A DNA stretch of 51,643 bases from the sequence record NC_049852.1; one strand, written 5' to 3'. This document shows, piece after piece, positions 407-43,840 of this stretch (position 1 is its first letter; every line of letters begins with the position of its first letter). Source of the DNA: Escherichia phage egaa. A model generated the notes under the pieces. The model did not search any database and was not told where the DNA came from. It saw only the letters and a list, made by a program, of their open reading frames with translations. Both the position numbers and the translations under genes were made by a program.

Positions 407-585
407 GCTTTATACCTCCTCGTGACTCAGTGACTGCATTATCATTTACCGCCACCTGGTGTGTCAACTGTTTTTTGTTGTTACTGGCGGTTTTCCGATG
501 TTATCTTTTCAGAACATAACAAGATTCGCGTTTTTTTTCTTATAAATCAATGTTGTTTTTGCGTGTTATCTAAAAAAGCGCGGAT

Positions 586-720
586 ACGCCCCCACCCCCA
601 TATACACACCAACCAATACACAACCACACACAACCACCAAAAATACATCAGACATCAATATGACCACATAACACACACAACAGATAGTAATTTATAGATA
701 CATATAAATAAATAATCCTT
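586..720. repeat. CA-rich, G-depleted low-complexity tract followed by AT-rich segment
   Basis: cccccaccccca...atacacaaccacacacaacc...; almost no G on plus strand; shares 13-mer atacacaaccaca with 22840-22852; approximate coordinates. Confidence 0.6.
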
Positions 721-729
721 ATTTTTTAG

Positions 730-820
730 TATGTTATATGGATTTCTCTTGTTATTTTTTGTTATGCGATTCCACGCCGGAATAACACGCATAACAGCGA
801 TAACAGAAGATAACAGTTGC
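730..820. promoter_or_regulatory. inverted iteron array: 3x TGTTAT then 4x (G)ATAACAG at 9-10 bp spacing
   Basis: tatgTTATatgg..cttgTTATttttttgTTATgcg ... aATAACAcgcATAACAGcgATAACAGaagATAACAGttg seen directly; helical-turn spacing typical of iterons or operators. Confidence 0.5.
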
Positions 821-1000
821 GCTCGCCAGGATTGCCGAAAAGGATGCGAGAGGATCGCGTTTCTCTATCCCCTCCACACAAAAAGTTAATCACTTGATTA
901 AAATTGATCAAACTCAAAGTCTCACAATCCAGGCGATCGCGAATGATTTATTCCTGTTATTCCTGATTAATGGAATAGGTGGAATAATAACCAGTAAGCA

Positions 1001-1045
1001 AATAGCACTTTTTGTTAAAACTGAATTGCCCTGATCGGGTACATT
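1001..1045 (+). promoter_or_regulatory. conserved 20-bp element AATAGCACTTTTTGTTAAAA + 21-nt spacer + TACATT (-10-like); putative early promoter
   Basis: exact 20-mer at 1001-1020; ATG of downstream gene at 1083; 11-bp inverted repeat ctgatcgggta/tacccatcag encloses the -10. Confidence 0.6.
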
Positions 1046-1082
1046 AGACACATCGAAACGAGATACCCATCAGGAGATAGCA

Positions 1083-5183: not shown

Positions 5184-6767
5184 ATGAATTTTTCGTTTGA
5201 AACCAACAAACTAACACCAAAACAAATTATCGAATTAGCTGATGCACAAGGATTGTCTCCGGTGCGCGTGTCCATTCAGGCAAACGGATACCGTCAATCG
5301 TCCAGCTTTTGGGGTGAGGTTAATGATGTTAATAACGGAAATGATCGCTACCCTGTAATTTCTCTTGGCAATGATGTTGATGTTGTTGGTAAGTTGGCGC
5401 GCAACATTGCTCGCTCAGTTCAGTTCCCTGAATCATCGGCATATATGCATTTTATCGGCTGCGTGTCTGCTGCAATGCTTGGACGCTTCACGGTTGAGTA
5501 TCACGGAACGGATCAGCCGACCGCTCTTTATGTTGTCACAAGCCAGCCTCCTTCAACTGGTAAATCTGCCGTTAACAGCCTGGCACTTGCTCCAATGGTT
5601 GCAGAAGTGGAAAGAATTAACGATCAGCGAAAGAAGGAAAGAAAAAAGATTCAGGCAAAGTTGGCAGGTCTTGCAAAAGAGATGAAAAGCGAGCGCTCCG
5701 GCGCTGATATGGAATCTCTATACCAGGAGAAAGAAGATCTGGAAGAAAAACTGGAAAAGATGTGTGACATTGTTTTCCCTGTGTCCGACACCACGCCGGA
5801 AGGACTTGCAAGAATCAACAATCGCCAGGGTAACTTTGCTGTGATTTCAGACGAGGCAACGAGTATTAACAGCCTTTTAGGTCTGACATATGCTAATAGC
5901 GAACGTAAAACCAACAGCGAACTTGTGCTGAAAGCATGGGATCATGGTCATGTTTCTATAGCTCGTGCAAACGCTGACAACAATATGAGTTTTAAAGCTC
6001 TTGGCTGTATGGCGGTGATTGCCCAGGATGAAACAATCAATGCCATCATGGATGCAGGATCGCGCGGTATCGGTGTGAGTGAGCGTTATTTGCTTGTGCG
6101 TGAGGAATCATTTTTAGGTCGTCGAAAGTTTGTTGATGATAACGGTGATTCTACTTATGAGCCTGTTGATGGAGAACTGAAAAGTCAATATTTTAAGCTG
6201 ATCCATAACATCATGAGTGAATCAAACATCCAGCTTAAGATCAGTAAATCAGCAATGCGAGTTCTTAACATGGCTCGTCAGGAGATGGAGCCGCACCTTG
6301 CTGATGGCGGAAAGTATTCGCATACAATGCTGCGCGGTGCTCTTGGCAAAATGGATAAGCAGGTGATCAGGATTGCTTCGGTTTTGCACACTATCCGCAA
6401 CTGGTTTAATCCTGGTGGATACCCTCAGAAGTCGAAAGAGATTGAAGTTGAAACCGTTCAAGAAGCACTGCTGATGTTTAGCGAGTTGAGCAAAACATAC
6501 ATTAGCGCCGCCAACGCTTCTGGCTATGCTGGTGATGATGCTGAAATGGGTAAACTAATCGAGATTATCACTCGACACGGTAAGGCTAACAAGGGGATCT
6601 TGAATGTTCGCGCCATATATGAGGCTGCACGAAAAGTTAAGCCGTTTGTTGGCCAGGCTGGCGTAATGAAGCGTATGGAAACGCAACTGCTGCCGATGCT
6701 TGAAGAAAGAAATTATATTTGTGTGATTAATGGCGTTGTTTTTGTAAATCCAACATTGCTGGGGTAA
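5184..6767 (+). CDS. P-loop NTPase-like early protein (527 aa)
   Basis: In-frame ATG (codon 22 of track ORF) with RBS aaAGGAGttatcatcaATG; Walker-A-like QPPSTGKSA; coiled-coil KKERKKIQAKLAGLAKEMK; function unknown. Confidence 0.65.
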   Translation: MNFSFETNKLTPKQIIELADAQGLSPVRVSIQANGYRQSSSFWGEVNDVNNGNDRYPVISLGNDVDVVGKLARNIARSVQFPESSAYMHFIGCVSAAMLGRFTVEYHGTDQPTALYVVTSQPPSTGKSAVNSLALAPMVAEVERINDQRKKERKKIQAKLAGLAKEMKSERSGADMESLYQEKEDLEEKLEKMCDIVFPVSDTTPEGLARINNRQGNFAVISDEATSINSLLGLTYANSERKTNSELVLKAWDHGHVSIARANADNNMSFKALGCMAVIAQDETINAIMDAGSRGIGVSERYLLVREESFLGRRKFVDDNGDSTYEPVDGELKSQYFKLIHNIMSESNIQLKISKSAMRVLNMARQEMEPHLADGGKYSHTMLRGALGKMDKQVIRIASVLHTIRNWFNPGGYPQKSKEIEVETVQEALLMFSELSKTYISAANASGYAGDDAEMGKLIEIITRHGKANKGILNVRAIYEAARKVKPFVGQAGVMKRMETQLLPMLEERNYICVINGVVFVNPTLLG

Positions 6768-7992: not shown

Positions 7993-8481
7993 TTACAGAT
8001 CCTTAATGCAATATTTAAATTCCACCGCGCGGCGGTTGCGCAGTCCTTTAGACGTTTCTTTCTTTCCTGTTTTTGGATTGGTGTATTTTGTCCATCTCCA
8101 TAACTGATCGCACGCTTCCATATAACGACCGTTATTAATCAGCTTAAGCATGGTTGAATTTCTAAAAGCTCCAGTTCCAGCATTGTATGTGAATGAATAC
8201 ATTGCTGCGCGCATTGTATCAGGAATGTCAACCTTTACACGCTTATCAACTTCATCCTTTGCGATTTTGATATGCTTCGCCAGTAGTGCATCGCACTCTC
8301 TTTGTGTGTACGTTTTGCCTTGTATTACGTCAGGGCCAGTTATTCCGGCGCAAACCGTCCATACCCCAGCAATATCTTTGTACGGCTTATGTTTTACTCC
8401 TTCTATTTCCTCCAGTAGCGGAGAAGTAAGGGCAAGAGCAACGCCAAAAGCCGCAGCGGTCACTCTTTGTTTTATACTCAT
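7993..8481 (-). CDS. endolysin, T4-lysozyme-like (GH24), probable SAR (signal-anchor-release) type
   Basis: Catalytic E-x8-D-x5-T triad ([16 protein letters not shown]); weakly hydrophobic Ala/Gly-rich N-terminus [18 protein letters not shown]. Confidence 0.8.
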
Positions 8482-8696
8482 TATTTACCTCTGATCTCAA
8501 TAGCTTTCTTAATATCACCGCATTCAAGCGCGTCACGTAGCGCCTTACTATCACGCCAGCGAAGATAAGCGCCCCACATACCAAATGCAGCCATCAAAAC
8601 GAAGCTGGCTATTGCAATAGTTGTTTGACCAGTTACCGCGCCAGTTATTGACGCGCCGCCAGTGCCGGAAGTTGCAGCGTTTAAAAAATCTTTCAT
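8481..8696 (-). CDS. holin (possibly pinholin)
   Basis: 71 aa, hydrophobic core [29 protein letters not shown], charged C-terminus; immediately upstream of endolysin; RBS cAGGAGatctaATG. Confidence 0.65.
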
Positions 8697-8769
8697 GATT
8701 AGATCTCCTGTAAATAAAAGTCAACAATTAATTGATTGTATCCTAACCATTGAACGCACAAAAAGGAAT

Positions 8770-8810
8770 AAAAAAAGGGCAAAGCAAAATGCCTCGCCCA
8801 ATTAAATTGA
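8770..8810 (-). terminator. possible terminator/attenuator upstream of lysis cassette
   Basis: minus strand gggcgaggc...gctttgccc imperfect hairpin followed by TTTTTTT; approximate. Confidence 0.35.
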
Positions 8811-8827
8811 TGATTTATATTGATATT

Positions 8828-9958
8828 TTAATAATTAAAAGTTCGATCTGCCATTTCTGGATAATGCATAAATCGCCCGACCTCGCCGTATTCTTTATCG
8901 TAAACAATAACAGCCGCACGGCGACGAGAACGCCATCCACCGCGCGCAGCATATGCATCTTTTGCCGCCATAGTGCTATGCACTTCAACAATGCCCAGGC
9001 TTGTTTCAGTTACTGTCTGATGATGCCAGTGCCCTACGTGAGCATACATCATTTTTGAATTGCCGAAATCTTCGCGCCAGTCTGCCGCGCACATCATGAG
9101 CAATGTTTCAGGTTTGCGGATAGTATGCCCGTGATGGTATGCCAGGAACGTTTTGCCATATTGTGTGTGATGAACTACTCGCGGAGACACATCAACATGC
9201 ACTCGCGGCTCATTCTCATATGCTGCCGCCATTGCTGCGCGCAACCAGATCATGCCGCTTTGGTCGTGGTTGCCTTCAATGATCTGAATCTCGACGTTTT
9301 TGTGTTTTGATAACAGCTTTGTGATTGCTCTACGCACTGACCGGATGGCAACATAAACAAGTTTTGCATATCGACTATCTTGGTCTAATACGTGACCGCT
9401 TGCAGGCGTTACCGCTTCCAGTCCGTCGCTGTGAAGCATATCACCACCAATCAGCAAAACAGCCTTCTCACTATCCGGCGCGCACTGGATGGAATAATCA
9501 ATGAAATTATTCATTACGCGCTCTGCTGTTGCTGTATCCCAATTCTCGCCGCATTCATGCTTATGCGCCATTGCGCCCAGGTGCATATCAAAGATCGGAT
9601 ACAGTGATAACGTCTCGCTATAATCCTTTTGTGATTCTGGTTGCGGATCAAGTCGCGGAACTTCTTCGCTAAATGCATCCATAGCGGCCTGCATTAATGC
9701 TTCTAACTGTTCGCGGTCCTTGCTTGTCTTAATCCATGTCATAACCACATTGCCATCTTGATCAATTAGCTTTGATTCTCCAGTAACACCAAAACCAGGT
9801 GATCCGATGGTTGTAACTTTACCTTGCTTTGCTAATCGTGCCGCGCGGCGCTCAATGCTGCGAACGTTCATACCATACTCATTAGCGATCTGCTTATATG
9901 TCTTTCCCTGCTTGCGCTCATTGATAAATTGTTCATCTGTGATTTTGATTTGATTCAT
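8828..9958 (-). CDS. HTH domain - calcineurin-like metallophosphoesterase fusion protein
   Basis: N-terminal helix-turn-helix (KTYKQIANEYGMNVRSIERRAARL); phosphoesterase motifs FDMHLG (DxH), GGDMLHSDG (GDxxH), GNHD; ATG at 9958 with AAGGAG upstream (track start is TTG at 9961). Confidence 0.6.
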   Translation of the reverse strand: MNQIKITDEQFINERKQGKTYKQIANEYGMNVRSIERRAARLAKQGKVTTIGSPGFGVTGESKLIDQDGNVVMTWIKTSKDREQLEALMQAAMDAFSEEVPRLDPQPESQKDYSETLSLYPIFDMHLGAMAHKHECGENWDTATAERVMNNFIDYSIQCAPDSEKAVLLIGGDMLHSDGLEAVTPASGHVLDQDSRYAKLVYVAIRSVRRAITKLLSKHKNVEIQIIEGNHDQSGMIWLRAAMAAAYENEPRVHVDVSPRVVHHTQYGKTFLAYHHGHTIRKPETLLMMCAADWREDFGNSKMMYAHVGHWHHQTVTETSLGIVEVHSTMAAKDAYAARGGWRSRRRAAVIVYDKEYGEVGRFMHYPEMADRTFNY

Positions 9959-10057
9959 CAAAAAATTCTCCTTATCTCATTATGACAACGTATACAATAG
10001 AGATCGCCATCATAACAGGTAATGGCAAAAGTAACAAACGCCACATGATAATAATCC

Positions 10058-10300
10058 TCATTTGTAGTATTTGCGCGGCTCGCGAATTTTCGCCATAGCC
10101 TCTTTGACATCAATTTTTGTTGGTATTGCTGGTACGCGATGCATCTTGCGCGGGCGTTCATTGAGAAATGTCATTTTGTCGCCGCTGATAATGCTTATGT
10201 CAGCAATATCAAAATATTTCGCTATCCTGGATATGTCTTCTGCGATCCCGCATTCCTTTGCGTGATCCCATACAGCCTGCCTACCTTGTTCAACCTTCAT
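10058..10300 (-). CDS. hypothetical protein (80 aa)
   Basis: In-frame ATG (codon 8 of track ORF 10058-10321, whose start is TTG); GGAGG 14 nt upstream; overlaps stop of upstream small ORF. Confidence 0.55.
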   Translation of the reverse strand: MKVEQGRQAVWDHAKECGIAEDISRIAKYFDIADISIISGDKMTFLNERPRKMHRVPAIPTKIDVKEAMAKIREPRKYYK

Positions 10301-10469
10301 GCTTATAATATGCCTCCGCAAATGCTAATGGGTAGTGACCATATGCTACGCGAAGTAGAATCATTGCAGCACCCCAATCAAGATGCATATTGTTTTTCGT
10401 TCCGCCTTTTACCGCCTCGCGTGCGGTTTGTTGTGCCTGATCAAATGCTTTTTTGCTGTATACTACCAT
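10290..10469 (-). CDS. small hypothetical protein (59 aa), not in ORF track
   Basis: ATG 10469 with RBS GAGGAaataaaaATG, 58 nt downstream of promoter element; MVVYSKKAFDQAQQTAREAVKGG... Confidence 0.5.
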   Translation of the reverse strand: MVVYSKKAFDQAQQTAREAVKGGTKNNMHLDWGAAMILLRVAYGHYPLAFAEAYYKHEG

Positions 10470-10500
10470 TTTTATTTCCTCATGTTCGTTTCGATAAAAT

Positions 10501-10546
10501 AATTATGCCCGACACAAGGCCGGGCGTTTTAACAAAAAGTGCTATT
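10501..10546 (-). promoter_or_regulatory. conserved 20-bp element (minus orientation) + 23-nt spacer + ATAATT
   Basis: rc of 10527-10546 = aatagcactttttgttaaaa; contains TAG stop of 10542-10781; hairpin gcccggc-cttgtgt-cgggc in spacer; leader CGAAACGAA...GAGGA. Confidence 0.6.
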
Positions 10547-10781
10547 TTGACGCGGATTCGTAAAACTCTTGCAAGTCTTTACCGATCTGCTCATGCCATT
10601 TTTCAAGCGGTAGTTTTCTTGTTTCCTCAAAGCTCATGTCAAGCGCGCTTGTAAACTCCCACGGATCGCAACCTAATAGCGGTTTTATGAACTCGTTTTT
10701 ATCAAGCGCCTCGCAAACCATAGCGCGAAATAACAACCACTCTCCAGTTTCATTTAAATAAACGCTTCTTTCTTTCTGCAT
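10542..10781 (-). CDS. hypothetical protein (79 aa)
   Basis: In-frame ATG (codon 117 of track ORF 10542-11129) with RBS AAGCGGAGttaatatcATG; longer track ORF overlaps dam. Confidence 0.55.
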   Translation of the reverse strand: MQKERSVYLNETGEWLLFRAMVCEALDKNEFIKPLLGCDPWEFTSALDMSFEETRKLPLEKWHEQIGKDLQEFYESASK

Positions 10782-10785
10782 GATA

Positions 10786-11487
10786 TTAACTCCGCTTTCT
10801 TGCTCGACGCTCTGCCACCGAAGGGCAAATGTCGCTGATTTTAACGTATCGCGTTTTCTGCTGCTCACCTTCTTTAAGTTCTCGCATGATGAAAATAACG
10901 CTGCCTTTGTTGTTGCCCTGCACTGGTTTACCTGTAAGCGCGGAAGTAAACGCCAGGCGTCCGGTGCGGGAATATTCTGTTCCGTCCTCCTGGTAAACTT
11001 CTCCAGTGATCCAGATGATTTCCGCTGCGCGCTGTTGCGCTTCATAAAACCATCCTGTTGATGTGTCGCAAGGTAACAGTATGTCGATCTGGTTGTTGTG
11101 CTCCATTTGCTCAATCGCCTTCTTAACAAATGGAGTAATATTGCTGTACGGTGGATTAAGCCAGATATGCTTATTACTACCCCACCAACGCTTTAAGCAA
11201 TTTGTTTCCTTGCTGTAGAATTTTTCACATACAGCATTTTCTTTGCTCGCCGCCGCGTCGATGTCATAATCACCGTATTCGCTTTCCATCCATTCGACAA
11301 GCTCAGACGGAGTAGACCACAAATCGCGCACAATGTCCGGCGTATTGCTGCCGTTATAGCGGTTGCCAGTCACTTTGAAATATTGATTTGGTTTAACAGC
11401 CTGGTAATGACCACCAGTAGCAAGAGCATTGCCAATGAATGTTTCGCGTTCTATTTGTTCAAATGTCACTTCGGTTTCTTTGCTCAT
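10786..11487 (-). CDS. dam: DNA N6-adenine methyltransferase (phage Dam-like)
   Basis: NPPY catalytic motif (WLNPPYSNITPF) of amino-MTases; position next to nuclease/helicase as in T1-like phages. Confidence 0.8.
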   Translation of the reverse strand: MSKETEVTFEQIERETFIGNALATGGHYQAVKPNQYFKVTGNRYNGSNTPDIVRDLWSTPSELVEWMESEYGDYDIDAAASKENAVCEKFYSKETNCLKRWWGSNKHIWLNPPYSNITPFVKKAIEQMEHNNQIDILLPCDTSTGWFYEAQQRAAEIIWITGEVYQEDGTEYSRTGRLAFTSALTGKPVQGNNKGSVIFIMRELKEGEQQKTRYVKISDICPSVAERRARKRS

Positions 11488-14096: not shown

Positions 14097-14570
14097 ATGA
14101 AAGAGCAACGAATCGCAGTATCAACAGGCAAGATTGACAAGCGCACAATTAATGGCAATAACGGAACAAGACGAGGCAAGGATAAGAAGAAGCGCAAGCG
14201 ACCGACAGGTTATTATGTTCTAAAAGATGAGGTGCGTGCCGGGCTAAAAGCGCGACTTGATATCCTTATTGAGTATTACGGAAGTGTATCAGCAATGGCA
14301 AAACGTCTTAACGTTAGCCAGCAAACTGTAAATCAGTGGCGCGTTCGCGGTATGATTTCAGCCGCTGGCGCTCAAAAGGTGCATAACGATTACAAAAAAT
14401 ATGGCTGCCAAGGCTATCGCGCGTCATTCTGCCGTCCAGATCTGCGATTTGATTCCAATGGTAAACCTCTCACAAAGAGATGTGATAAGCGTGAAATGTT
14501 GCGAGTGGTAAGAATGTCAGATTATGAACCTGGCGGATTCCTGTATAAACCTGAAAGCACTAATTGCTAA
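14097..14570 (+). CDS. HTH DNA-binding protein (XRE/Cro-like helix-turn-helix)
   Basis: SVSAMAKRLNVSQQTVNQWRVRGMIS helix-turn-helix; basic N-terminus; RBS GGAGaatgaataATG. Confidence 0.6.
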   Translation: MKEQRIAVSTGKIDKRTINGNNGTRRGKDKKKRKRPTGYYVLKDEVRAGLKARLDILIEYYGSVSAMAKRLNVSQQTVNQWRVRGMISAAGAQKVHNDYKKYGCQGYRASFCRPDLRFDSNGKPLTKRCDKREMLRVVRMSDYEPGGFLYKPESTNC

Positions 14571-14624
14571 AAACAATGCCTGGCATGATGTTATCATCTG
14601 TCAGGCTTTTTGTTTGAGGTGTAT

Positions 14625-15557
14625 ATGAATAACGAAAACTTTATGGTTTATCAAAAGGAAGATGTTCTCCCATATATGCAAGGATTGTGGCGTGAGGCGC
14701 TACAAAGTATTTGCGGTCTTCCAAATGAAGTTTTTAACGGCAAGCATCAATCTTGCCCCCACTGCGGCGGAAAGGATCGCTTCAGATGGACGGATAAACT
14801 TGGCGATAAAAAAGGCGATGGCGGTGCGATCTGCAACGTGTGCGGTAATGATACCGGAATTGGTTGGATCATGAAGCTAACCGGAGAACCTTACAGCGAA
14901 GTGATCAATATTTTGGGCCGTTTTCTTGGAAAAGTTCCGCAGGACTATAGAATAAAGGCAAATAAGCGAGTATCTCGTGATTCTGGTTATTCGTTTGGGA
15001 AACAGGCAAGCCATGAATGCTGCGAGCGCGTTATGTCAAAAACACTAAAATTTGATCGCACGCCGTTAAGCACATATGAAGGAATATACCCGCCTGAAGA
15101 TGGTCATTATGATTGCGGCGTAAAAGATGGTCGATACATTCACGCGTTACCATGTTACCTTGTGCATTCAGATGATATTGATGATGAAATGTGCAATGTG
15201 CTTTTCATTGATGAAGAAGGTAAACAGTCTTTTCTAGCAAAGGACTACACGCGCGGGTCGATTGTGAGAACAGGAAGCACAGATAAGACGATCTATCTTT
15301 GCGTTGACTGGATTGATGCGCAACATATTCACCTTGCAACTGGACAAGAGGTTTGGGCCTGTTTTGATGCAACTAACATTGAGATTGTGGCTTACAGGTA
15401 TAAAGGCAACAGAAGAATGCGAGTTGTCTGTAAGAGCACAGATCGTGACGCTATCATAGCTGCCGAGGAAAGAGGTCTTGAAATTATGATTCCGATTAAT
15501 GATAATTACAGGAAAGGGATAGAGAGGAAGGTTTACAAACCTGAATCTCTTCTCTAA
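14625..15557 (+). CDS. DNA primase (T7 gp4-like zinc ribbon)
   Basis: CPHCGGKDRFRW...CNVCGND zinc ribbon typical of phage primase N-termini; in-frame ATG at codon 6 with GAGGTG upstream (track start TTG). Confidence 0.7.
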   Translation: MNNENFMVYQKEDVLPYMQGLWREALQSICGLPNEVFNGKHQSCPHCGGKDRFRWTDKLGDKKGDGGAICNVCGNDTGIGWIMKLTGEPYSEVINILGRFLGKVPQDYRIKANKRVSRDSGYSFGKQASHECCERVMSKTLKFDRTPLSTYEGIYPPEDGHYDCGVKDGRYIHALPCYLVHSDDIDDEMCNVLFIDEEGKQSFLAKDYTRGSIVRTGSTDKTIYLCVDWIDAQHIHLATGQEVWACFDATNIEIVAYRYKGNRRMRVVCKSTDRDAIIAAEERGLEIMIPINDNYRKGIERKVYKPESLL

Positions 15558-23049: not shown

Positions 23050-23093
23050 GAATAGCACTTTTTGCTAAACGACCGCCGCAAGATCGTGTATAG
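23050..23093 (+). promoter_or_regulatory. element variant AATAGCACTTTTTGCTAAAC + 22-nt spacer + TATAGT
   Basis: 57 nt upstream of lipoprotein gene ATG. Confidence 0.55.
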
Positions 23094-36457: not shown

Positions 36458-37432
36458 TTAACTTGATTTTTTCAAGCCAGTAATAAGCACTAGCGTAAAC
36501 GGACGGTAAATCGTCAGGCCAGTACATTTTGAAGTGCACGGAACTTTGAAATGCAGATCTTTTGGTTGCGCCGGAAGCATGTTAAATGCTTCTGGAATTT
36601 CGATCGACATATTCATTGGGTCTTTCTCATATACCAGGCAACCTTTAGTTCCAGTGCCATCAATATCCTCAAGCTCTGCGATTGAGTCGATGGTGATTCC
36701 GCTGTTTTGTTTCTGGAAGTATTCCAGATAACTTTCAGTGGTGTTTTCCATTCGAACGGAAAGAACCTTGCGCATAGACGGCGGAATCAAGATATTTGTT
36801 GCGCGGTGCTGACCATTGGTGATGGTCTGAATGGTTTCAATAGCCTTTTCCAGTTCATCAGATGCAGCCTGCGGGAACTTAGTGTTTTCATCATTACTTA
36901 ACCAGCCAGAAGACACGATCTTTGTCAGGTTAGGATGTTCGAACACCGAAAGAATCTTATGCGGCTTTGAACCCTTAAACACCAGGCGGTTAACTTCCTG
37001 ATCGTGAGCGTTTTGCGCTGCGTTTGCCTTGCGAGTGGAAAGGCTCTTACCAGTGCGCTGACCAGCCTTGATTTCGTCGATGGAGATCAAGAACGCGTTA
37101 CCCAAGCGGAACACTTTACCAAATTCGCTGGACATCAGTGCGTCAACGGTCGGCAGGTCGTCGGTATAATCAGCGATAATTTTTGCGTAACCAACCTTGT
37201 CAAACATCTGATATTCAAAAGTCTTATCAGTATCAGAAAGCTCATTAGTTACAGGGAATACACGAAGCGCTGAACCTGCCGGATATTCTTTCTCGTAAGC
37301 AGTTGAGCGGATCTTGTGAAGCTCTTGCGCCGTCCAGATACCCATATCGGACGCATCACCTTTAACGCCGCTAGTAGCCAGATAGCTAGAAACAATATCC
37401 GCATCTAGCTGATCAAATTTTTCTTTTTCCAT
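36458..37432 (-). CDS. major capsid protein (HK97-fold expected)
   Basis: 324 aa from ATG with RBS atatGGAGGaagaaaATG (track start is GTG 42 nt upstream); downstream of scaffold, followed by strong terminator. Confidence 0.75.
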   Translation of the reverse strand: MEKEKFDQLDADIVSSYLATSGVKGDASDMGIWTAQELHKIRSTAYEKEYPAGSALRVFPVTNELSDTDKTFEYQMFDKVGYAKIIADYTDDLPTVDALMSSEFGKVFRLGNAFLISIDEIKAGQRTGKSLSTRKANAAQNAHDQEVNRLVFKGSKPHKILSVFEHPNLTKIVSSGWLSNDENTKFPQAASDELEKAIETIQTITNGQHRATNILIPPSMRKVLSVRMENTTESYLEYFQKQNSGITIDSIAELEDIDGTGTKGCLVYEKDPMNMSIEIPEAFNMLPAQPKDLHFKVPCTSKCTGLTIYRPFTLVLITGLKKSS

Positions 37433-43319: not shown

Positions 43320-43840
43320 TATATCTTCTCCAGAATGTCAATTACCGCCTCTTTGACTTCCTCCGCCGTTACAGCGTCAACGCTGGCGCTTGTGTTATTC
43401 TCAATGGTAACGGTGGCTGGCTTTTCAATGCCGATCTCCTTACCGATGAATCCGGCGTTAACAATATTGTTTGCGGCAAGCTGGAATTTTTGCTCGTAAA
43501 CAACGCCGTCGATAAAGTCCATAACCTCGCTGAATCCTGGCTCACGTCGCCATTTTTCAAGTACGGAAGCAGAAAGGCCAGCGAATAATCGGAATCCGTT
43601 TAAGGTGAACACTCGCGGCTTGTGAATCTTGCTTTCGTATACGTCACCCTGAAAGGATGCCGTTTCCGCAGCCTGTATATGGTTTTCCTCCGCCCACGTA
43701 AAGTAACGTACAGCCAGATCAAATACCTGTTCCGGCGTGTACTTGTGCGCCTTTGTCATTTTTGCAATATCGCCATATTGCTTATTATATAGTTTTTTAA
43801 AGTTGCAAGCCTTTACTGCTGGCTCAACGTTTTTAGCCAT
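43319..43840 (-). CDS. terS: terminase small subunit
   Basis: 173 aa from ATG with RBS aAAGGAGGgcgcattATG (codon 58 of track ORF); immediately upstream of terL. Confidence 0.6.
   Translation of the reverse strand: MAKNVEPAVKACNFKKLYNKQYGDIAKMTKAHKYTPEQVFDLAVRYFTWAEENHIQAAETASFQGDVYESKIHKPRVFTLNGFRLFAGLSASVLEKWRREPGFSEVMDFIDGVVYEQKFQLAANNIVNAGFIGKEIGIEKPATVTIENNTSASVDAVTAEEVKEAVIDILEKI

Follow-up and report, generated by a model that had tools for sequence, protein, structure and literature searches.

Escherichia phage egaa (NC_049852.1), whose whole 51,643-nt sequence we refer to as the window, contains a non-coding gap of about 675 bp (407–1082) between two divergent operons. Our analysis of this gap, here called the hub, suggests that ~470–815 is an iteron-type replication origin for the MCM-like helicase of the phage, an interpretation to which we assign an about even chance of being correct. 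The hub as a whole can be read as promoter, origin, packaging (pac) site, operator, and promoter, in that order. An earlier note on this DNA had proposed a replication origin or a multi-site operator. The origin proposal has gained real but circumstantial support from an anatomy like that of staphylococcal pathogenicity island (SaPI) origins, from the P-loop protein named in that note, which models as an MCM-like helicase, and from analogous arrays in distant phages. The operator proposal has become less likely for the TGTTAT arrays, as promoters lie at the gap edges, and is still plausible for a dyad at 948–987.

By sequence comparison, the window is a Hanrivervirus genome, T1-like, of the Drexlerviridae, subfamily Tempevirinae. 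The seven classical T phages include T1, and Drexlerviridae rank among the most frequent coliphages. Positions 400–1100 are 89–93% identical to Hanrivervirus genomes (vojen, damhaus, 2019SD1, and pSf-1) and ~68% identical, over the full length, to Warwickvirus genomes. The interpretation offers the T1-like phages a ~350-bp candidate origin, a candidate initiator (the DUF3987 protein), and a promoter–origin–pac–promoter layout; it extends the origin logic of staphylococcal islands and phage P4, a self-loading helicase plus hexamer iterons, to a large family of virulent enterobacterial phages, and it gives a reading for the DUF3987 family.

Phased TGTT repeats surround an AT-rich block

The window carries 57 copies of TGTTAT/ATAACA, 12 of which fall inside the gap, at 499(+), 516(−), 564(+), 668(−), 732(+), 750(+), 760(+), 782(−), 791(−), 800(−), 810(−), and 955(+). 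The number expected in the gap is 0.6 at the rate of the remaining window, 0.75 given the composition of the hub, and 0.87 (maximum 6) according to 5000 first-order Markov resamples, and the excess is ~15-fold (Poisson P about 2e-12). With the copy at 955 left out, 11 hexamers lie within 499–815, where ~0.7 are expected, and they surround the AT-rich block with four copies on its left and seven on its right, both orientations being present on each side.

The left-hand set (499–673) comprises the copies at 499(+), 516(−), 564(+), and 668(−). The copy at 564 is invariant in two genera, while in some Hanriverviruses only the TGTT/AACA core is left of those at 499, 516, and 668. On the right, three direct copies (732, 750, and 760; 732–765, plus strand) face four inverted copies of ATAACA(G/C) (782, 791, 800, and 810; 782–815, minus strand) across a 16-bp centre. 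The inverted copies are spaced by 9, 9, and 10 bp, and the copies at 750 and 760 by 10 bp, in keeping with helical phasing. The three-facing-four arrangement and its 9–10 bp period had been described in the earlier note and are confirmed here, as are the four inverted positions; the copy at 782, however, reads AATAACAC and not ATAACAG. Four further hexamers lie left of the AT-rich block, and the range considered in that note, 586–990, omits the copies outside it.

The earlier note also missed that the repeat of the phage family is a degenerate TGTT/AACA core (TGTT[A/C]) with variable flanking bases and not a strict TGTTAT. The position of the inverted array is kept in all lineages while its sequence is degenerate, with 3–7 copies of RAACA(G) phased at 9–13 bp. 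Direct copies 10 bp apart are found at the same place elsewhere, as two copies of GGCGTAATTT in T1 and as TTGTTC/TTGTTG in PGN590, and a single array of phage tonnikala mixes CTGTTAT, CTGTTCAC, and CTGTTAAC. We considered, and rejected, a rule of one private iteron per lineage (TGTTAT, TGTTCAC, or GTTAATC) co-evolving with a protein: the tonnikala array holds all three variants, and PGN590 breaks the rule as well, with TTGTTC, TTGTTG, and TGTTATC together.

The AT-rich block between the two repeat sets (685–731; 41 of 47 bases A or T, 87%) is a putative DNA-unwinding element and has −10-like hexamers inside. About 35 consecutive bases of it (~690–726) are invariant between genera that are 68% identical overall, and related AT blocks occupy the same place in TLS, T1, L018, L020, and MSK. 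Directly left of the block lies a CA-rich, G-poor tract (586–690, plus strand; GT-rich on the minus strand), in which the 95 nt of 590–684 comprise 45 A, 38 C, 3 G, and 9 T (C 40%, G 3%); it is the most G-poor 100-nt window of the entire 51.6 kb on either strand. Both features had been described in the earlier note, the tract as a strand-asymmetric, nearly G-free stretch at about 590–700, and both are confirmed. The CA tract is conserved in composition, not in sequence. Specifically, atuna, PGN590, and T1 retain the G depletion, its strand, and its side relative to the AT block despite sequence drift, and L030 has (AAC)13 at the equivalent place, whereas TLS and L020 have their G-poorest stretch on the opposite side of the hub.

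The features of a DnaA-dependent oriC-type origin are not seen in the hub. No exact DnaA box (TTWTNCACA) was found in it, only two one-mismatch matches, and GATC sites (4 of 282 in the hub) show no enrichment.

The hub layout is conserved across T1-like phages

Poor conservation in close relatives, which the earlier note had named as a reason to doubt a function, is not what the comparison gives: the gap length (about 675 bp) and its blocks are kept between Hanrivervirus and Warwickvirus at only 68% identity. Blocks that are invariant or nearly so in the two genera are the −35 element of the leftward promoter PL, 539–571, ~690–726, 749–765, and 1000–1021 with the leader that follows. Within 539–571, CTTATAAATCAATGTT (539–555) and a TGTTATC core (564–570) are invariant, and the ~8 nt between them vary; CCTTATAAATCAATGT is also found in L018. 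The segment TTGTTATTTTTTGTTAT (749–765), which spans two of the direct repeats, is invariant between genera except for a 1-nt deletion in 2019SD1.

The same order of parts is shared by T1, TLS, the IMG/VR contigs L014–L022, and the Braunvirinae phage MSK. On the left come a leftward sigma-70 promoter, short repeats, an A/C-rich tract, and an AT block with a TATTATATAG-like core; next, going rightward, come two direct repeats 10 bp apart, 3–7 inverted repeats at 9–13 bp, and an AATCA-rich segment; and last come lineage-specific repeats, the 21-nt repeat, and the first gene.

The same place is known in T1 and TLS as a pac-containing untranslated region in the gap between divergent operons of small genes. 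The papers on it describe neither iterons nor an origin, and the TGTT arrays, the AT block, and the CA tract do not appear in them (PMC11447400, PMC7718038). According to the TLS and SU57 papers, neither an origin nor iterons have been identified in T1-like phages, and the 2024 TLS paper reports no iterons anywhere in the genome (PMC11447400). The presence of pac in this untranslated region and the existence of the 21-nt repeat have thus been published already. The T1-like literature that we covered does not contain the iteron arrays, a candidate unwinding element in the AT block, the MCM-like winged-helix fold of the DUF3987 protein, or the link between them.

An MCM-like helicase is the candidate initiator

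The rightward operon, headed by the gene with its ATG at 1083, includes the DUF3987 protein (5184–6764, plus strand), which was characterized with Pfam, AlphaFold2, and Foldseek. An AlphaFold2 model built from a 33-sequence alignment has a pLDDT of 88.7 and a pTM of 0.86, and its top 50 Foldseek matches are all MCM subunits. The Walker A motif PPSTGKS is invariant. Furthermore, the modelled C-terminus (residues 451–521) has the H-b-H-H-b-b order of a winged helix. The protein thus models as an MCM-like AAA+ helicase with a C-terminal winged helix, and by analogy we propose that it is the origin-binding, self-loading helicase of the phage.

Two further genes of the same strand encode a Cro/YdaS-like helix-turn-helix (HTH) protein (14097–14567) and, behind it, a P4-alpha-type Zn-ribbon primase (14610–15554), both identified with Pfam. 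The gene order of a distant phage, L031, suggests that the HTH protein of T1-like phages, annotated as a 'transcriptional regulator', belongs to the replication module. On contig L031, a YdaS/Cro-like HTH gene, a Zn-ribbon primase gene, and the DUF3987 helicase gene lie in one operon (8344–11075).

Distant contigs whose helicases are 38–41% identical to that of the window were chosen for comparison, among about a dozen DUF3987 phage genomes read out of several hundred. L030 has ten copies of CTTACA in a 558-bp divergent gap before its helicase operon (0.29 expected, P 1e-12), together with its (AAC)13 and an AT block. L034 has 12 copies of GGGGT in 566 bp (0.22 expected, P 2e-17), rich in G on one side and in C on the other, around AT blocks. 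In L031 and L032, CCCCAG/CTGGGG repeats flank an AT block with ATATAGATATAAATAG, in a 535-bp non-coding stretch directly after the helicase gene; the small terminase (TerS) of these two contigs is of another family (Terminase_2) and is encoded 5 kb away. Different hexamers accompany the diverged helicases of L030, L031, and L034, and, as judged from these sequences, regions of iterons and an AT block go with the helicase outside the T1 group too.

Exchange of modules between relatives bears on the same point. A recurrent recombination breakpoint lies at ~789–802, inside the ATAACAG array, and 791–1082, at 87–95% identity, is all that the window has in common here with more than 25 phage records (herni, PGN590, slyngel, BEK/BEC phages, aalborv, and others). 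Hanriverviruses with this second hub type (PGN590, BEC3, slyngel, and herni) have a TLS/L018-like left module together with a TerS and a helicase that are each 99% identical to those of the window. Compared with TLS/L018, the helicase winged helix is 68–70% identical, with 13 of 15 residues of the putative recognition helix shared, while TerS is 49–50% identical, and an exchange of left modules would for this reason be easier for the better conserved winged helix than for TerS. This would favour the helicase as partner of the array, as an argument and not as proof, and a weaker one than those above: different left modules occur among Hanriverviruses that are ~99% identical in both TerS and helicase, and the mosaic does not cleanly separate the two candidates.

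The hub resembles the origins of staphylococcal islands and phage P4

SaPI origins consist of 6–12 penta- or hexanucleotide iterons, which are bound by the winged helix of a self-loading Rep helicase, and have an AT-rich region near their centre and at least two iterons per side in opposite directions; one type of Rep is MCM-like (PMC9371898). The segment 470–815 has each of these sequence features, namely the number of iterons, the central AT-rich region, and the opposite orientations on each side, and the predicted model of 5184–6764 supplies the helicase with a C-terminal winged helix. The likeness extends to the protein set, in which a primase, separate or fused, accompanies a helicase of the SF3 or MCM type that ends in a winged helix. 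In contrast to SaPIs, and to the related SCCmec element with its Cch protein, the element of the window belongs to a virulent phage of a Gram-negative host and has more degenerate iterons. Furthermore, it heads the operon of the helicase gene, 4.1 kb upstream of that gene, and does not follow it directly as in SaPIs; the SaPI arrangement is found in L031/L032.

The origin of phage P4, as annotated in its record, has three copies of GGTGAACAG at 10–11 bp, followed by one in inverted orientation, an AT-rich stretch, and a further two copies; its type-I iterons, GGTGAACA/TGTTCACC, are thus spaced by 10–11 bp and surround an AT-rich stretch in both orientations. The motif of the TLS hub, TGTTCAC, equals the core of the P4 type-I iteron, the GATAACAG of the window differs from GGTGAACAG at two positions, and the primases of T1-like phages are Zn-ribbon primases of the P4-alpha type. 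However, P4 alpha is a single polypeptide with an SF3 helicase and a Pox_D5 domain, whereas the window has separate genes for the primase and the MCM-like DUF3987 protein; the motif of the window is TGTTAT and not the P4 iteron TGTTCACC that goes with the Pox_D5 binding domain; and no second cis site (crr) is seen in the window. A Pfam search with E ≤ 10 gave no Pox_D5 signal in the helicase, primase, or HTH proteins, and BLASTP and a phmmer search of PDB were likewise negative for a P4-alpha-type origin-binding domain in the three.

We propose that the MCM-like helicase would bind the iterons through its C-terminal winged helix, with one hexamer on each side, after which the AT block (685–731) would melt and the helicase would load itself. 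The P4-alpha-type primase would then prime synthesis, as SaPI Rep and P4 alpha work. The most probable role of the CA tract left of the AT block would be to supply, beside the site of melting, an unstructured single strand for helicase threading, or for priming on the GT-rich strand; this is the least supported step. Headful packaging would start directly right of the origin module (~850–945) and run leftward through it.

Several observations weigh against a helicase-driven origin. We infer, from the resemblances described above, both the binder of the iterons and the start of replication in the hub, and binding of the winged helix to the TGTT repeats is pure inference. The searches detected no sequence similarity of the winged helix to the P4 alpha origin-binding domain (Pox_D5) or to any solved structure, and no experimental data on replication initiation in any T1-like phage were found in the literature that we covered. 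The distance of 4.1 kb to the helicase gene counts on the same side. Cumulative GC skew tracks gene orientation at all four strand switches; following transcription in this way, it says nothing on the origin. The degenerate, mixed motif would suit phased low-specificity contacts by any ring-shaped oligomer, the small terminase included. Only ~50–130 bp separate the right-hand array from the packaging end, on the first-packaged side, which is where terminase sites of the lambda cosB type would lie. Finally, the hub of L030 is also near a GP3-type TerS, and L031/L032 are thus the only contigs that separate the helicase from TerS.

Packaging ends of relatives map to the hub

The earlier note missed that the pac ends of T1, TLS, SU57, and MSK map to the hub. 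The T1 record is linear, opens in the equivalent gap, and is annotated with a terminal repeat at 1–2800, and the TLS record opens in the equivalent gap as well; the starts of the two records correspond to ~888–945 of the window. The TLS pac was located with restriction maps, after which a resemblance of 6 bases to the P22 pac fixed its position (PMC11447400). The SU57 paper assigns pac to this untranslated region for T1 and other T1-like phages, and the start of the SU57 record was chosen at an abrupt step in read coverage. In MSK, PhageTerm gave a forward terminus at 36,862 (PMC8421802). We find that MSK 36,862 and SU57 position 1 are homologous to within ~3 nt, both beginning CCA...ATTCTTG. 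Counted from the first gene of the helicase-operon side, which corresponds to T1 gene 1, they are 222 and 239 nt away, and the AT block comes 120–135 nt after them, in the direction of packaging. Transferred by homology, this end would fall at ~850–875 of the window. The haarsle record starts at 874 of the window and the G29-2 record ends at 867, having been opened at 866|867, ~8 bp away. Taken together, these sequences make it most likely that the first packaging cut is made 50–130 bp right of the ATAACAG array and that packaging runs from there leftward via the arrays, the AT block, and the CA tract. The record of an LL5-like phage (L023, 1–60) starts elsewhere, between the direct and inverted TGTT repeats at the equivalent of ~778; no reason for this start was found in the LL5 paper.

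The packaging-end zone of the window, placed by homology with relatives, is ~842–945. It contains a GC-rich, hairpin-capable segment, GAGAGGAT...ATCCCCTC (842–875), and, to its right, an A/C-rich AATCA segment with TGATCA (905–910) and CGATCG (933–938). An exact match to the core consensus of integration host factor (IHF), AATCAAGTGATTA, lies on the minus strand at 887–899; by our own estimate about 0.02 such matches are expected in the hub, and the site is kept as WATCAR in other Hanriverviruses and not in Warwickvirus. Dam-site hexamers of the TGATC(A/G) type stand beside the pac end, at 851–856, 905–910, and 933–938 in the window, where they are more spread than in the TLS (L009) and L020 hubs, which have three within ~35 bp; a Dam methylase is phage-encoded. 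They recall the Dam-regulated hexamers of P1 pac. An attempt to place the T1 pac through similarity of the T1 hub to phage lambda (the lambda 'esp' site) gave only chance-level 11–13-mers and was abandoned.

Given these ends, the TGTTAT/ATAACA arrays, perhaps with an IHF-bent AT block, could instead be the recognition part of the pac site, in which a ring-shaped small terminase would wrap the phased repeats just within the first-packaged end, in the manner of the lambda cosB R-sites or the pac repeats of P1 and SPP1, and the large terminase would cut ~50–130 bp to the right. We regard this as a serious possibility, albeit an unlikely one. The T1 and TLS records open in the hub at the mapped pac; the MSK terminus and the SU57 coverage step agree to within ~3 nt, with packaging toward the AT block; the haarsle and G29-2 records open ~8 bp apart; the LL5-like record starts exactly at the centre of the facing repeats; the IHF core is exact; and a degenerate phased motif suits wrapping by a multi-subunit ring. 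The P1 and SPP1 pac sites and lambda cosB are terminase sites made of short repeats about a centre or beside the cut. The three-facing-four copies round a 16-bp centre resemble the 4+3 hexamer layout of P1 pac, and the known sites share with the hub the grouping of short repeats on both sides of a centre or near the cut, a nearby IHF site, and Dam-site hexamers TGATC(A/G) near the cut region, which occur in TLS and L020 and less densely in the window.

Against a terminase role of the arrays stand, first, L031/L032, whose iterons and AT block accompany the DUF3987 helicase and whose TerS belongs to another family and is 5 kb off. Second, the small terminase of the window (43322–43840, minus strand) belongs by Pfam to the P22 gp3 family (GP3_package), and P22 uses a single asymmetric 22-bp pac; compared with that site, GAAGATTTATCTGAAGTCGTTA, as quoted in PMC11447400, the best match in the hub is the 7-mer GATTTAT on the minus strand of 539–555 (10 of 22 positions overall), which is at chance level. 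Third, the TLS-like left modules function alongside a Hanrivervirus TerS with only ~49% identity to that of TLS; relative to the window, TerS is 73% identical in Warwickvirus and 49–54% in TLS, T1, and L018. Moreover, half of the repeats lie beyond the AT block, 200–370 bp from the cut, exceeding the span of known pac sites, and the TGATC(A/G) elements right of the cut offer alternative pac elements. Unlike in P1, SPP1, and lambda, the TerS of the window is P22 gp3-like, and the site is 8 kb from the terminase genes.

Promoters lie at the gap edges

The leftward operon, headed by a DUF7174 gene (ATG at 406, minus strand), is served by a sigma-70 promoter, PL (438–467, minus strand; TTGACA-18-GATAAT), which matches the consensus at 11 of 12 positions and lies ~30 nt upstream of the gene. 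A position weight matrix (PWM) scan identified PL as the only sigma-70-type promoter at the same place in all nine hubs, with the form TTGAC(A/G/T)-16/18-nATAAT. The rightward operon has a promoter cassette built on the 21-nt direct repeat (DR; 1000–1076, plus strand), comprising the DR AAATAGCACTTTTTGTTAAAAC (1000–1021), a −10-like TACATT (1040–1045), and a leader. Both promoters hug their own genes, and the ~500 bp of conserved non-coding DNA between them are therefore not needed for promoters and should serve something else.

This arrangement bears on the possibility, which we consider improbable, that the repeats are operators or activator sites of a phage regulator, for example the HTH protein (14097–14567), acting on early promoters in the AT block to turn early transcription on or off. 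Good −10 hexamers occur in the AT block in both orientations in most lineages, with a perfect leftward TATAAT in T1, TLS, L018, Warwickvirus, and MSK, and two direct repeats stand just downstream of the block. However, each operon has its own gene-adjacent promoter; transcripts from the AT block would have untranslated leaders of ~340 nt rightward or ~285 nt leftward; no −35 is conserved; and the leftward hexamer is TATAAC in Hanrivervirus. The window and Warwickvirus, both of which have TGTTAT, agree in the HTH recognition helix, which is different in TLS and T1, but phylogeny explains this pattern equally well, and 4–7 direct repeats at 9–10 bp are unlike the dyad operators of Cro-type dimers.

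An operator is more readily recognized beside the DR promoter, where two copies of TTATTCCTG (948–965) face two copies of GGAATA (972–986) in an inverted repeat (948–987) with 81% complementarity. The earlier note had listed TGTTAT/GGAATA repeats at 951–990; the TGTTAT at 955 is a by-product of this TTATTCCTG/GGAATA repeat. The TATTCC/GGAATA dyad lies just upstream of the DR promoter, resembles a classical operator, is invariant in Hanrivervirus, and shares its motif with T1; at the same site Warwickvirus has four copies of GATTAC at 10-bp spacing and TLS has two copies of AGACCAATCGGTCT. The dyad is plausible as a lineage-specific operator. A search for a protein common to the window and T1 and absent from Warwickvirus and TLS, which could explain the shared dyad, gave no convincing DNA-binding candidate.

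The CA tract may also act as RNA. A weak rightward promoter candidate, TTGTTA-18-TGtTATCTT (478–507, plus strand), has the best rightward PWM score in the hub (10.0) and would transcribe the tract, in which case the tract could be a Rho-loading (rut) site that insulates the operons. Alternatively, a leftward transcript from the AT block could provide a GU-rich R-loop RNA that primes replication, or a small RNA that ends at a weak terminator at 595–580. As a substitute for the origin we hold such RNA-level roles to be quite improbable. The composition (C 40%, G 3% over 95 nt) is that of a rut site, which takes at least ~80 nt of unstructured, C-rich and G-poor RNA that is transcribed and not translated, and is conserved as composition, a terminator-like site is present at 595–580 on the minus strand, and leftward promoter candidates occur in the AT block of several hubs; yet the promoters are weak or not conserved in position; rightward candidates comparable to 478–507 exist in other hubs and do not align with it. 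In addition, the terminator-like hairpin, of 5 pairs including G-T, is not kept in Warwickvirus, TLS and L020 are poorest in G on the opposite side of the hub, and no covariance model of Rfam 15 matched either strand of 300–1200 at E ≤ 1. The tract may be a strand free of structure beside the melting site, a rut site, or a zone of R-loop formation or priming, and the roles proposed for the parts of the hub are compatible with each other.

We would hardly expect, last, that origin and pac are one machine, with the phased TGTT array read first by the MCM-like helicase and later by the small terminase, and the G-free CA strand as a landing pad specific to one strand, by which the helicase would be loaded in a set direction; if true, this would amount to a direct physical hand-over from replication to headful packaging at a single locus.

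The 21-nt direct repeat resembles half of a promoter

The 21-nt direct repeat aaATAGCACnnnTTGnTAAAA of TLS, T1, and Rtp is intergenic, points the way that transcription runs, and lies ~76 nt before the start codon; its function is listed as an open question in the 2024 TLS paper (PMC11447400). The hub copy (about 1000–1020), which the earlier note had overlooked, has 0 mismatches at 1002–1020 on the plus strand and stands 63–83 nt before the ATG at 1083. The window contains 23 copies of the DR (ATAGCACnnnTTGnTAAAA), at 1002, 1879, 2385, 3037, 4435, 5111, 7280, 10527, 11547, 14065, 14554, 21544, 23052, 27804, 33719, 37479, 41736, 45921, 47267, 48569, 49786, 50841, and 51304, where 3.1 are expected. 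When the copies are lined up, a −10-like hexamer (CATAAT, TATAAT, TATAGT, or TACATT) follows each at 17–20 nt, the spacer often contains a GC hairpin, and a conserved leader, ATCGAAACGA, and a GAGGA Shine-Dalgarno sequence come next. The DR thus looks like the upstream half of a class of promoters that have no −35 and appear to need a DR-bound factor, and the hub copy would drive the rightward operon from ~1052. The copies at 23052, 33719, and 37479 oppose the direction of the surrounding late genes. In the leader of the hub copy, a stem of CCTGATCGGGTA (1029–1040) with TACCCATCAGG (1066–1076) would cover the Shine-Dalgarno sequence of the first rightward gene. Pairings that resemble that of 1029–1076 and occlude the Shine-Dalgarno sequence are also found after the DR copies at 1879 and 51304.

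The gap is non-coding, and related records carry the hub

Open reading frames (ORFs) within 407–1082 encode 26–78 amino acids. None matches a PHROG family, and the frame of the longest is broken by 2-nt indels between genera; no gap ORF is conserved or matches a family, in agreement with the view of the earlier note that the gap holds no credible ORF. The first rightward ORF (1083–1592, 169 amino acids) equals two vojen genes (273 and 240 nt) fused in frame.

Contig L016 (IMGVR_UViG_3300045988_040344), a 34.6-kb metagenomic contig, encodes a helicase and a small terminase that are 100% identical to those of the window and, judged by these sequences, is probably the same phage. About 20 'Campylobacter phage' records within GenBank MG065636–MG065687, with C. 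jejuni given as host, are T1-like coliphage genomes that carry the hub and are probably mislabelled or contaminants. In pSf-1 (L005) and in records of the Campylobacter phage E6 type, the full-length hub query aligns as two pieces across ~1.4–1.5 kb, which therefore indicates ~0.8 kb of extra DNA, or a duplication of the DR, leader, and gene start, at the right edge of the hub.

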